Assembly (NCBI RefSeq): GCF_003334405.1
Contig: NZ_QOWM01000001.1
Source of the DNA: Escherichia coli
Lineage (GTDB): Bacteria; Pseudomonadota; Gammaproteobacteria; Enterobacterales; Enterobacteriaceae
Reading direction: 5' to 3' (one strand)
DNA length: 64,000 bases
Below, in pieces: positions 15,393 through 29,065 of the stretch. The position numbers were made by a program, and so were the translations under genes. Under the pieces are notes generated by a model, which was not told the origin of the DNA, made no database searches, and saw only the letters and a list, made by a program, of their open reading frames with translations. Position 1 is the first letter of the stretch. Each line of letters opens with the position of its first letter.

Positions 15393-15426
15393 CAGCCCGA
15401 CGAACTGTTTCGCCGGGCTGATTTTT
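15393..15426 (+). terminator. Intrinsic terminator after perM
   Basis: CAGCCCG-acgaactgtttcgc-CGGGCTG followed by ATTTTT; the T-run overlaps the focB stop on the other strand. Confidence 0.6.
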
Positions 15427-16274
15427 CAGGGTTCCTGACGTAAATAAATAGCCCGATAACACATACTCACCAGCACCGCACCGCCGATAATATTACCCAG
15501 CATCACCGGGAGCAGATTGGCGGTAATAAAATGGCTGACCGTCAGTGCCGGAAAATTGTCTGCGCTACTGTGCGCCAGCTGCCAGAAGGGGGGAGGGGCG
15601 AAATGGCGAATGGCAATGGCGAACGGAATCACAAACAAATTGGCGATACAGTGCTCAAAGCCACTGGCGACAAACAGGGTGATGGGCAAAATCATGGCGA
15701 CGATTTTGTCGCATAACGAACGCCCGCAATAACTCATCCACAGCGCCAGGCAAACCATCAGATTGCACATAATGCCGAGGCTGACAGATTCAGTAAATGT
15801 ATGATGCATTTTGCCCTCGGCGCAGTGTAAAACCGCGACTCCCCACATCGCGTTTTCACTCATCACCAGCCCGGAAAACCAGATTAACAAACTGAAACAG
15901 GCAATACCTGCCAGATTACCGCAGGCCACCAGAAGTGCGTTAATCAGCCAAGTTCGCCAACTAATAACGCCCCGACTTTTTGCCATCACCGTCATTACCG
16001 ACGAGGTGAACAGGCTGGTGCCGCAAACCGCCAGCAAAATAAAGCCGAGTGTAAAGCAAAGGCCGCCCACCAGATGGGTTAATGCCTGTGAAGACGGGGC
16101 ATCGGCGATAACGGAAAGGTAAAAAGTAAATCCGATCGCCATAAACACGCCAGCGGACATCGCCATTAAAAAGACCGACACTTTACTGCGGGCAATTTTA
16201 TGGGCGGCAATCCGTTCAGCGATTGCCGCTTTTCTGGCGCTCAACTGCAAGTCGAAAGAGAGTTTGTTTCTCAT
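15426..16274 (-). CDS. focB: Formate channel FocB (FNT family)
   Basis: 282-aa membrane protein, last gene of the hyf locus. Confidence 0.85.
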   Translation of the reverse strand: MRNKLSFDLQLSARKAAIAERIAAHKIARSKVSVFLMAMSAGVFMAIGFTFYLSVIADAPSSQALTHLVGGLCFTLGFILLAVCGTSLFTSSVMTVMAKSRGVISWRTWLINALLVACGNLAGIACFSLLIWFSGLVMSENAMWGVAVLHCAEGKMHHTFTESVSLGIMCNLMVCLALWMSYCGRSLCDKIVAMILPITLFVASGFEHCIANLFVIPFAIAIRHFAPPPFWQLAHSSADNFPALTVSHFITANLLPVMLGNIIGGAVLVSMCYRAIYLRQEP

Positions 16275-16295
16275 GCATACTCCTGCAAAAGCAGA

Positions 16296-18308
16296 TTACA
16301 ACACCTCGCGAACCGAGATCCCCAGCCGCTGCATTCGTGACAGCAGCGTGGTGCGCTTCATCCCTAATCGCGTCGCTGCGCCACGGGGCCCGGCAACAAT
16401 GCCATTGGTTTCTCGCAATACCTGAACAATGCGCTGACGTTCTTCTTCGTCATTCTCTGGCGTCGTCGGGTGCAGTAACTGCGCCATTGAACTGCGAAGC
16501 GCTGAATCTTCATTTAGCGTCGGCAGTAAACGGCTTTGTCGGACATTTAGATGTAAATTCAGACTGTTACCACGAGTCAACAGTACCGCCCGCTCAATCA
16601 CGTTTTCCAGCTCGCGCACGTTGCCCGGCCAATCCCACGACATCAACTGGCGTAGTGCCTCGGTCGGGATGGCGTCAATTGCGCGATTCATATGGCGCGC
16701 CATTTTTTGCGTGAAATGTTTTGCTAAAAGAGGGATATCTTCCGGACGGTCGCGTAGCGGCGGCAATTCCAGTGGGAAGACATTCAGGCGATAAAAGAGA
16801 TCGCTGCGAAACTGGCGATCTTCAACCATTTGCCACAAATCACGGTTGGTGGCGGCAATGACTCTGACATTCACCGGGATCGTTCTACTCCCGCCGAGAC
16901 GCTCAATCTCCCGCTCCTGCAATACGCGCAGCAGTTTAGGCTGAAGTTCTAACGGCAGATCGCCAATTTCATCGAGAAACAACGTGCCGCCATCGGCAAT
17001 TTCAAAACGACCACGATGGGTATTAATCGCACCAGTAAACGCCCCTTTGTCATGACCGAATAACTCACTTTCCAGAAGACTGGCGGGGATGGCAGCGCAG
17101 TTGATTTTGACCAGCGGCTTGTCGCGTCGCGGGCTAAGTTGATGGATCGCTCTGGCGATCACCTCTTTGCCAGTTCCGGTTTCACCACAAATCAACACCG
17201 TACTGTCGCTCTTCGCCACAATATCTACCTGCTGGAGCAGGTCTTCCATTGCCTGGCTTTGATAGATAATGTCACCGATGCCCAGATTCGAAAGGAGCTG
17301 CTCGCTAAGCTGGTGGTTTTCTTGCTGCAAACTTTCCTGCAAATCGGTCATGCTACGCCAGGCATCGGCATTGCCAACGGCAATAGCGATGCGATCGGCT
17401 ATGTGTTGTAGTAGCTGGCAGTTTTCCTCACTAAAGAGAGTGGAAGAGGTATGCGCCAGCAACAATGCACCCGGTGTATGGTTGCCAAAGGTAAGCGGTA
17501 TAAGGAGCGCAGATTCGCAGCCGTTAGATGCAAGTAAGAGTAATAACGGGTCGCGTTGCCAGAGAAACAGATCATCTGCACGGTGCGTCAAGGTCGGTTG
17601 TCGGGTTTGTAGCGTTTGTGTCAGCAATACACTTTCGCCAGGCATACAGCGTGGCAGACACGCACAATGTGAGGCAGAAAGATCGCTGCACCACAGGCTG
17701 AACTTCTCGTTCTTTCGATGATCGCCCAGTACCATACTGACTGAAGCCAGACCGAAAAAATGATGGATCTCACGAGCGACGTCAGCGATCAGATCGTCGA
17801 GATCAAGATGTGACAGCACTGCATTAGTAATATCAACCAGTACCCGATGATGATCGCGATCTTTCTCCAGCAAACGCAGCGCCACCTGCTGTTCTTCATC
17901 ATTGAGCCATGATTGCAGAACCGGGGTGATTATCCGCGCCAGCCAGTTAAACAGTGTGCAATCCTGGGAAGTAAAACGACTGCCGTGGGTGCGAATAAAG
18001 CGTAGCTCCGCCATTCCACTACTGCCGAGAAGGACGGCGTGACGCGAATAATCGACCATCTCGCCCTGATACTCTGTTGTTGCCGTCACATCGCTGCCAT
18101 CATCATGGTAGCGGTAATAGAAGTTGCTTTTGAGAACATGCAGTTCAATAAGTTGTACCGGGCTGAACGGCGGCGGCAGCGGGATGAAGGCGCGTAATAA
18201 AGACGCCTTGCCGTGTTTCTGTGCTAACCGCTCCGCGAGCATTCCGTTTACCGCTTCAATTGTTATTCCTTGTGGCGGGGCAAACATCGCCTCGTCTGAC
18301 ATAGCCAT
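16296..18308 (-). CDS. hyfR: Sigma-54-dependent transcriptional activator HyfR (FhlA-like)
   Basis: AAA+ sigma-54 activator motifs GETGTGKE (Walker A), [15 protein letters not shown] (GAFTGA loop); C-terminal helix-turn-helix. Start is either of the two adjacent Met codons (18308 or 18311). Confidence 0.85.
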
Positions 18309-28390: not shown

Positions 28391-29007
28391 TAGCGTTGCT
28401 CCTGAGTGAGGGAAAGGGGATCCTCCCCGCCATTGGCAAACCAGCTTGCGGCAAGGCGCTGTTTTTCTTTCATCTGACGTTGCAGGCTATCACCGGTGAT
28501 CAGCCGTAACGCCTGATTCGGGCAAGCGCGAACGCAGGCCGGACCTTCTGGCAAGAAATCACACAGGTCGCATTTCACCGCGACGGTCTGGACACCAGGT
28601 TCCCAGCGCAGCAAAGCATGTTGTGTTGGCGCGTTTTCTTCGCCGTCTTTGAGTGAGCCTTCAGCCTGAAAAACATATTGCGCATGGGCATTCACCGGAC
28701 GGCTTCCTGAAGCGCTGATTGCGCCAAATGGGCAGACCACGGCGCAAAGCTTGCAGCCAATACAGAGGCTTTCGTTGAGTTGGATCGCATCATCCCTCTG
28801 AGAGATGGCATTGACCGGGCAGACCTGCAGGCAAGGGGCTTCCTCACAGTGATGACACACGACAGGGGCAGTGATTGTTGACGTCTTCGCCAGGGCCAGG
28901 CGCGGGTGTTGCTGTAAACCTTGCGTTTTATGCACGTCCGAACAGGCAGCGAGACAGGTATTACATCCTGTACACCACAGTGGTTCGGCCACCACAAAGC
29001 GGTTCAT
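28390..29007 (-). CDS. hyfA: Hydrogenase-4 ferredoxin-type subunit HyfA (multi-[4Fe-4S])
   Basis: 205 aa from the ATG at 29005-29007 (MNRFVVAEPLWCTGCNTCLAAC); four Cys clusters. Confidence 0.9.
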   Translation of the reverse strand: MNRFVVAEPLWCTGCNTCLAACSDVHKTQGLQQHPRLALAKTSTITAPVVCHHCEEAPCLQVCPVNAISQRDDAIQLNESLCIGCKLCAVVCPFGAISASGSRPVNAHAQYVFQAEGSLKDGEENAPTQHALLRWEPGVQTVAVKCDLCDFLPEGPACVRACPNQALRLITGDSLQRQMKEKQRLAASWFANGGEDPLSLTQEQR

Positions 29008-29047
29008 GTCGGCTCCTTGAAAATGATATGAAACATTGCATTTCATA

Positions 29048-29065
29048 TTGCATAAAGGATGCCAT
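29048..29065 (-). promoter_or_regulatory. Candidate sigma-54 (-24/-12) promoter of the hyf operon
   Basis: Reverse strand reads TGGCATCCTTTATGCA, with GG and GC at the canonical 12-bp spacing (consensus TGGCAC-N5-TTGCA), about 40 bp upstream of hyfA and consistent with the sigma-54 activator HyfR encoded in the locus. Confidence 0.5.

Follow-up and report, generated by a model that had tools for sequence, protein, structure and literature searches.

Does the hyf locus of Escherichia coli encode a working hydrogenase that is merely left unexpressed, or one whose catalytic subunit is itself damaged? We considered this question for a 64,000-nucleotide (nt) stretch of E. coli DNA from contig NZ_QOWM01000001.1, referred to here as the window. 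Among living enzymes, formate hydrogenlyase-2 (FHL-2), of which hydrogenase-4 (Hyd-4) is the hydrogenase, is considered to stand nearest to the ancestor of respiratory complex I, and it may conserve energy. E. coli would be the natural organism for testing energy conservation by FHL-2, yet no activity of the E. coli enzyme has ever been demonstrated. In the window, the open reading frame (ORF) listing contains twelve co-directional ORFs on the minus strand at 15426-29007, corresponding to hyfABCDEFGHIJ-hyfR-focB, with the locus extending to 29065 when its putative sigma-54 promoter is included. As the genes hyfA-J, hyfR and focB are found in this set and order between bcp and yfgO, this is a Hyf-type FHL-2 locus, encoding a group 4a [NiFe]-hydrogenase. 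It represents the K-12-type allele of the standard E. coli hyf-focB operon and, as such, is already known. The first-pass annotation of the window was right about the twelve genes but wrong to assume that the enzyme is intact and limited by its expression alone. As described below, the sequence comparisons indicate that the catalytic subunit, HyfG, is probably crippled by a 48-bp deletion in hyfG.

When HyfG of the window is aligned to the solved chain of its paralogue HycE (7z0s_E; E = 1.6e-279), a 16-residue gap is seen in HyfG, located between IARD and LRFDHPY at the site where HycE reads IARDFSNVGPMVRASGHARDTRADHPF. The residues missing are YSPVGPLIRGSGFARD. At the nucleotide level, the full-length allele of E. 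coli AH65 contains two copies of the 10-bp repeat GCCCGTGATT with 38 bp between them, while the window contains a single copy and exactly 48 bp fewer. The AH65 gene reads ...ATC GCCCGTGATT ATAGCC...GGTTTT GCCCGTGATT TGCGC..., with the extra 48 bp after the first repeat copy being ATAGCCCTGTAGGGCCGCTGATCCGCGGCAGTGGTTTTGCCCGTGATT. The loss is in-frame and lies between two copies of a 10-bp direct repeat, and the lone repeat copy, together with the exact 48-bp loss, is what deletion between short direct repeats characteristically leaves behind. The opposite direction, namely that the 48 bp are an insertion in other strains, was rejected, as the segment is present in all outgroups; the deletion is therefore the derived state. 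The first-pass annotation had described all reading frames as intact, which holds in that no frameshift or premature stop is found but not in that hyfG has lost 48 bp relative to the ancestral gene. It had also proposed aligning each Hyf protein to the reference. Such alignment indeed reveals no frameshift or stop and both NiFe cysteine pairs of HyfG, but 16 conserved HyfG residues are gone. It should be noted that alignment to the K-12 reference alone would hide the deletion, as K-12 carries the same one.

How unusual this loss is can be judged from the homologues. The sequence ARDYSPVGPLIRGSGFARD is present in the 571-amino acid (aa) representatives of the large E. coli HyfG clusters and in orthologues from nine other genera. 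Among the 120 closest database proteins, 112 contain this motif and six show the E. coli deletion junction, with the remaining two being short, unscorable fragments (one labelled Shigella sonnei and the other E. coli). Beyond these close relatives, the lost segment aligns with the conserved G-x-x-x-R-x-S/T-G stretch of Pyrococcus furiosus MbhL, Aquifex NuoCD, Thermus thermophilus Nqo4 and E. coli NuoCD. When 1.84 billion representatives were searched exhaustively, 123 diverse homologues (at 50% clustering) were found to span the region; 122 of these keep the segment, with the arginine found in all but one of those 122. Judged from these alignments, the lost segment is a near-universally conserved element, G-P-x-x-R-x-S-G. 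The lone exception among the 123 is a 218-aa representative with ~49% identity that presents the same 16-column gap; this may be the E. coli deletion allele itself, represented by a fragment with many errors. In a comparison with three other genera, conservation is highest for HyfG (79-88% identity), the gap of which is the sole insertion or deletion of at least 5 aa in any structural Hyf subunit. Outside the gap, HyfG shows no changes at positions that are invariant among the outgroups.

The deletion is easily overlooked in the databases and in the literature. NCBI gives the 555-aa and 571-aa proteins one name, 'hydrogenase 4 catalytic subunit HyfG', with the internal deletion unflagged. No mention of the hyfG deletion was found in the searchable literature on hyfG, with the primary papers of 1997 and 2004 lying outside that search. 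The K-12 hyf operon was reportedly described by Andrews et al. in 1997, and a prior description of the gap is possible, for example in that operon paper, such that we cannot claim that it was never noted.

What would the loss of these residues mean for the enzyme? In the structure of FHL-1 (PMC9474812), HycE Arg395, together with His284 and Glu437, forms a putative proton pathway to the canopy residues Arg478 and Asp529. The authors describe this pathway as conserved in FHL, in membrane-bound (MBH) and soluble hydrogenases and in complex I, in which NDUFS2 Arg297 takes the place of Arg395. When our alignment is read with this structure, the lost segment includes the arginine equivalent to HycE Arg395, while the HyfG of the window keeps H286, E423, R464 and D515, corresponding to HycE His284, Glu437, Arg478 and Asp529. 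The large-subunit core, including the G-P-x-x-R-x-S-G element with this arginine, is incomplete. We infer that HyfG in this allele either lacks catalytic activity or does not fold or assemble. The other 11 genes look functional. In a competent complex, the [NiFe] site of HyfG would receive electrons from formate dehydrogenase H (fdhF, encoded elsewhere) by way of HyfA, HyfH and HyfI and would reduce protons to H2. HyfC and HyfE, together with the antiporter-like HyfB, HyfD and HyfF, would form a complex-I-like membrane arm that could couple this reaction to ion translocation. HyfJ would aid maturation, HyfR would activate the sigma-54 promoter upstream of hyfA and FocB would conduct formate. 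With the 16 residues lost, HyfG would be inactive or unassembled and no FHL-2 activity would be expected, even if transcription were forced.

This expectation can be compared with published experiments on K-12, the hyf genes of which are practically those of the window. The genes, their order, lengths and neighbours, as well as the 48-bp hyfG deletion, are all common to the window and the K-12 MG1655 operon (b2481-b2492). Across the 12 genes, lengths are equal, start and stop codons are the same, there are no internal stops and one nucleotide differs in total; for the longer stretch of window 12208-33208, identity to K-12 2597000-2618000 is 99.995%, with that one base differing in 21 kb. The difference, at window 28195, falls in codon 66 of hyfB, which encodes Thr66 in the window and in all other strains checked. 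Thr66 is best read as the ancestral state of HyfB, with Pro66 being private to the MG1655 reference. The entire 64-kb window, which ends within eutA on one side and within yfgH on the other, is collinear with K-12 MG1655 2,566,208-2,630,207 (reverse complement), with eight mismatches and no gaps. Its source, to go by this level of identity, is a very close phylogroup-A relative of K-12 and not MG1655 itself. The locus also matches the annotated locus of E. coli M217 (RefSeq) gene for gene, as it does that of MG1655, confirming the gene order given by the first-pass annotation, and megablast against 5426 complete E. coli genomes found the region throughout, with the best matches annotated as hyfA-J, hyfR and focB.

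In derivatives of K-12 strains MG1655 and MC4100, replacement of the hyf promoter by Phyc or PT5 gave no Hyd-4 H2 (Finney et al. 2020, PMC7654741). Swapping in the HycE C-terminal peptide, or adding extra HycI or HyfK, likewise gave no H2, leading the authors to conclude that there were 'additional, unknown, biosynthetic problems'. The same study found that E. coli HycI matures Pectobacterium Hyd-4. Moreover, a foreign FHL-2 works in the same host, where the host maturation factors and formate dehydrogenase H (FdhH) suffice (10.1101/563510). Taken together, the negative K-12 results, the maturation of Pectobacterium Hyd-4 by HycI and the working foreign FHL-2 place the defect within the K-12 hyf genes themselves, where, on comparison of the sequences, the hyfG deletion is the only conspicuous candidate. 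We thus consider it rather probable that the composite account applies, that is, that a canonical hyf-focB locus has suffered a 48-bp deletion between repeats, that its HyfG is dead, misfolded or unassembled and that this is a main reason why K-12-type strains give no FHL-2 activity even under forced transcription. Taken as a separate claim, that the 48-bp deletion could be the main cause of Hyd-4/FHL-2 silence in K-12 is put forward tentatively, as a serious possibility.

The distribution of the deletion provides a second view of the locus. Among complete E. coli genomes, a probe for the 48-bp insert was found in 2007, a probe for the deletion junction in 2113 and the surrounding hyfG region in 4295. 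In a further ~1134, bcp adjoins yfgO and there is no hyf at all; hyf loss in the F/G/B2 lineage has already been published (PMC6896753). The full-length allele (571 aa; PV15-279, AF206, 222, 23CRST011 and AH65) belongs to the same 12-gene locus at the same site, with the other 11 gene lengths identical to those in the window and a divergence of ~1-2%, but keeps the 48 bp that the window has lost. All 12 genes are intact, together with a 571-aa HyfG, in O157:H7 PV15-279, AF206, 222 and 23CRST011. In four deletion alleles from divergent backgrounds, the shared haplotype is limited to a ~1-kb core that surrounds the deletion, which favours one old event with later recombination over recurrent independent deletions. 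In three of the four deletion-allele sequence types sampled (7 of 11 loci), further frameshifts, stops or an insertion sequence (IS) element are found; these include a hyfI frameshift, a hyfB frameshift with a 208-nt hyfD deletion, or four lesions together. The hyf locus is decaying in many lineages.

Several individual lesions were also seen along the way. In the ten genomes that best match the window (e.g., E. coli AR_0149), an IS4-like IS421 lies at the 3' end of hyfA, upstream of hyfB; IS421 is absent from the window at the hyfA/hyfB junction near 28390. The frameshifting hyfD deletion of ~208 nt recurs across several unrelated E. coli genomes, some with one hyfG allele and some with the other, and in FAM21845 hyfD is shortened in-frame to 1224 nt.

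The account favoured here has some weaknesses that need to be considered. The deletion allele is common, being found in about half (2113 of ~4295) of the hyfG-bearing complete genomes, and the other 11 genes are still open in K-12-like strains, such that the complex could still be useful. Loci with full-length hyfG decay too (three of seven sampled are broken), such that E. coli may be able to do without hyf on other grounds. H2 phenotypes that depend on hyf have been reported in some K-12 studies, as cited in PMC7654741 (its refs 17 and 18). The Arg395 pathway itself is termed 'putative' by the authors of PMC9474812. Substitutions at outgroup-invariant positions revealed no difference between the 555-aa and 571-aa variants in what is a small and biased sample. 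Finally, AlphaFold2 models of deleted and full-length HyfG have mean predicted local distance difference test (pLDDT) scores of 48.6 and 56.6, respectively, with the relevant region below 50, and are of too low a quality for the structural effect to be judged from them.

The most probable of the alternatives is that the deletion is tolerated or mild and that Hyd-4 inactivity has a cause common to all E. coli hyf loci, such as a missing accessory gene, an assembly incompatibility or a problem in other subunits. The allele has been maintained and has reached several genetic backgrounds, full-length hyfG loci often show decay as well, and E. coli hyf is without the hyfK, hydN, fdhF and hyp neighbours of the Pectobacterium and Atlantibacter loci. 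Against this, HycI can process Hyd-4 and the host maturation factors with FdhH suffice for a foreign FHL-2, no other conspicuous lesion is found in the structural genes, and the segment at issue is the one retained by 122 of 123 diverse homologues. We consider this alternative unlikely.

The view of the first-pass annotation, by which nothing but poor transcription in the laboratory keeps a fully competent FHL-2 silent, agrees with the 12 open ORFs, the NiFe cysteine pairs, the intact sigma-54 element and HyfR domains, and the conserved charged residues of the antiporter-like subunits. The literature indeed describes low native hyf expression. Poor expression is, however, probably not the whole reason for Hyd-4 silence, considering both the 16 near-universally conserved residues missing from HyfG and the failure of strong heterologous promoters to yield H2 in K-12 (PMC7654741). 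A silent but competent enzyme is thus quite improbable. Least probable is that the deleted HyfG was retained for a membrane ion-handling or formate-linked role without hydrogen catalysis, much as complex I lost its NiFe site: the 11 other unbroken genes of K-12-type loci and the K-12 phenotypes attributed to hyf (again as cited in PMC7654741) would fit such a role, but the further lesions in most of the deletion-allele sequence types sampled and the loss of the whole locus from ~1134 genomes do not, and the unchanged NiFe cysteines give no sign of adaptation.

The coordinates of the genes and sequence elements discussed here are collected in Table 1.

Table 1. Positions of the hyf genes and of associated elements in the window, with the model or comparison on which each assignment draws.
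Feature	Position	Strand	Description
focB	15426..16274	-	formate/nitrite-family (FNT) formate channel, 282 aa; NCBIfam NF007261 FocB, 649 bits vs cut-off 499; identical to K-12
hyfR	16296..18308	-	sigma-54-dependent activator, 670 aa; FhlA paralogue
hyfJ	18338..18751	-	HycH-like maturation chaperone, 137 aa; NF011664 HycH subfamily, 208 bits vs cut-off 145
hyfI	18744..19502	-	NuoB/HycG-like small subunit, 252 aa; NF005012 NuoB subfamily, 121.6 bits vs cut-off 116
hyfH	19499..20044	-	2x[4Fe-4S] ferredoxin-like subunit, 181 aa; NF006076, 362 bits vs cut-off 270
hyfG	20054..21721	-	GTG start; [NiFe] large subunit fused to NuoC-like domain; 555 aa vs 571 aa ancestral
hyfG deletion junction	20557..20566	-	lone retained copy of 10-bp repeat GCCCGTGATT; alignment with AH65 hyfG
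hyfF	21711..23291	-	antiporter-like membrane subunit, 526 aa; NF005041, 1177 bits vs cut-off 951
hyfE	23296..23946	-	small membrane subunit, 216 aa; NF008556, 369 bits vs cut-off 136; orthologue has PF00420
hyfD	23958..25397	-	antiporter-like membrane subunit, 479 aa; NF005097, 811 bits vs cut-off 430
hyfC	25414..26361	-	NuoH/HycD-like membrane subunit, 315 aa; NuoH models best, all below cut-off; orthologue has PF00146
hyfB	26372..28390	-	antiporter-like membrane subunit, 672 aa; NF005086, 977 bits vs cut-off 667
hyfA	28390..29007	-	ferredoxin-like subunit, HycB/HydN-like, 205 aa; HydN/AegA-type matches below cut-off
-24/-12 element	29049..29064	-	sigma-54-type, TGGCATcctttATGCA; 42 nt upstream of hyfA ATG
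Palindrome	29160..29173		CGACAC-NN-GTGTCG; ~100 bp upstream of -24 element; candidate activator (HyfR/FhlA) site
CRP-like site	29190..29205		TGTGATCTTGATCACG; 1 mismatch to TGTGA-N6-TCACA; putative function
Terminator-like hairpin	15392..15421	-	just after focB stop, between focB and convergent yfgO; consensus match only

HyfB, HyfD, HyfE, HyfF, HyfH and FocB exceed the cut-offs of their NCBIfam equivalog models and HyfJ and HyfI those of subfamily models. HyfA, HyfC, HyfG and HyfR pass no dedicated NCBIfam model, their best matches (HydN/AegA, NuoH, NuoD/NuoCD and FhlA, respectively) all being below cut-off, and their identity is thus based on identity to K-12 and on paralogue and PDB matches. 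Both NiFe cysteine pairs of HyfG are present, in RVC243GIC246GFAHS and DPC517YSC520TDR, with a 32-aa C-terminal extension, corresponding to a cleavable C-terminal peptide, following R523. Among the electron-transferring subunits, HyfA contains 16 cysteines, including two CxxCxxCxxxC motifs, HyfH contains two such motifs and HyfI carries cysteines 41, 44, 47, 105, 111 and 141. HyfE, the subunit that tells FHL-2 from FHL-1 (10.1101/563510), is present.

The three antiporter-like subunits predicted by the first-pass annotation are borne out by the equivalog matches of HyfB, HyfD and HyfF and by their conserved charged residues. In all three, a glutamate on transmembrane helix (TM) 5, a lysine on TM7 and a lysine on TM8 are invariant (HyfF itself keeps all of these), and a Glu/Lys follows the PPFN motif. 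The placement of these residues on the helices is presumably as in NuoL/M/N of the Mrp/NuoLMN family. The same annotation's claim that the locus carries its own sigma-54 activator and formate channel likewise holds, given the HyfR domains and the FocB model match. HyfR presents Pfam domains GAF (169-311), Sigma54_activat (347-513), AAA_lid and HTH_8 (621-661), with GAFTGA and Walker A (GETGTGKE) sequences, such that the GAF sensor, the AAA+ domain with GAFTGA and the Fis-type helix-turn-helix expected of an FhlA-like sigma-54 enhancer-binding protein are all present. However, HyfR scores below the FhlA equivalog NF011958 (642 bits vs cut-off 830), with the match spanning only residues 101-668. 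From these matches, HyfR is best described as an FhlA paralogue with a different N-terminus and not as FhlA itself.

The coupled or overlapping junctions reported earlier were also found, with overlaps of 1 nt (hyfA/hyfB), 11 nt (hyfF/hyfG), 4 nt (hyfH/hyfI) and 8 nt (hyfI/hyfJ); the remaining intergenic gaps are of 4-29 nt, with Shine-Dalgarno-like sequences. As all 12 ORFs of the locus are accounted for and none is a HycI-like protease or hyp gene, the dependence of maturation on genes elsewhere, as claimed in the first-pass annotation, is upheld.

With regard to control elements, the GG-N10-GC pattern with two mismatches occurs 49 times across the window, with 48.5 expected, such that the -24/-12 element is not above chance as a pattern; it was accepted for its position upstream of hyfA and the published sigma-54 dependence of hyf. 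The palindrome upstream of it is a candidate HyfR/FhlA site by virtue of its position. The hairpin after focB has a 13-pair stem with eight G-C pairs. An Rfam scan of 14000-30500 returned no matches.

Comparison with other hydrogenlyases places the locus in a wider context. In FHL-1 (hyc; cryo-EM structures 7Z0S/7Z0T), HycE is a close paralogue of HyfG and shares its NuoC-NuoD fusion, its NiFe cysteines and its C-terminal peptide of 32 residues, and HyfA/H/I/J/C/B correspond to HycB/F/G/H/D/C. FHL-1 has two membrane subunits and its own protease, HycI. By contrast, hyf adds HyfD, HyfE and HyfF, together with its own activator and formate channel, and here is without the HycE Arg395 segment. 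The FHL-2 of Pectobacterium atrosepticum and of Trabulsiella guamensis consist of the same Hyf-type subunits, including a large membrane arm, contain full-length HyfG and demonstrably produce H2 (PMC7384014, PMC7654741, 10.1101/563510). In these loci, a HycI-type protease (HyfK) is encoded and hyp/hydN/fdhF adjoin, whereas the locus in the window has no protease. A HycI-family gene also follows hyfJ in the Pectobacterium betavasculorum and Atlantibacter hermannii loci. According to PMC7654741, a HycI/HyfK gene is absent from every E. coli hyf locus, as well as from those of every other species with both hyc and hyf.

Some of these relatives present features of their own. The P. betavasculorum protein is ~80% identical to HyfG of the window, and its locus reads hyfABCD, a 154-aa HyfE remnant (9550-10014) and then hyfG directly, with no hyfF. 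Judged from its genes, the membrane arm has been shortened here by nature; P. atrosepticum, of the same genus, has an active FHL-2. The A. hermannii hyf locus adjoins a TraG-like P-loop gene and nikR (1-2425), and a stretch of ~2.3 kb (13981-16317) has no called gene where hyfR would be expected. In Enterobacter sp. R4-368 (Kosakonia-like), hyf-hyfR-focB lies in an E. coli-like context (bamC-dapA-gcvR-bcp / hyf / yfgO-bepA-arsC-hda), which suggests either that the presence of hyf here predates the genus Escherichia or that its acquisition took place at the same site.

The locus is a textbook one and the importance of the present analysis thus lies in its reinterpretation. Reviews of 2025-2026 still regard E. 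coli FHL-2 as a potentially working complex. For genome annotation, the difference between 555 and 571 aa goes unmarked under a single name. If our reading is true, the failed attempts at engineering would be accounted for by a simple lesion that arose naturally in the reference strain's catalytic subunit, and the deletion, present in K-12 and in about half of hyf-bearing E. coli, would be the main reason for almost 30 years of 'silent' hydrogenase-4. Earlier hyf work in K-12 would then have used a catalytically defective allele, casting doubt on K-12 phenotypes attributed to Hyd-4. Restoring the 16 codons, or turning to natural strains with intact loci and a 571-aa HyfG, would in that case give an active, possibly ion-translocating, FHL-2 in E. 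coli.

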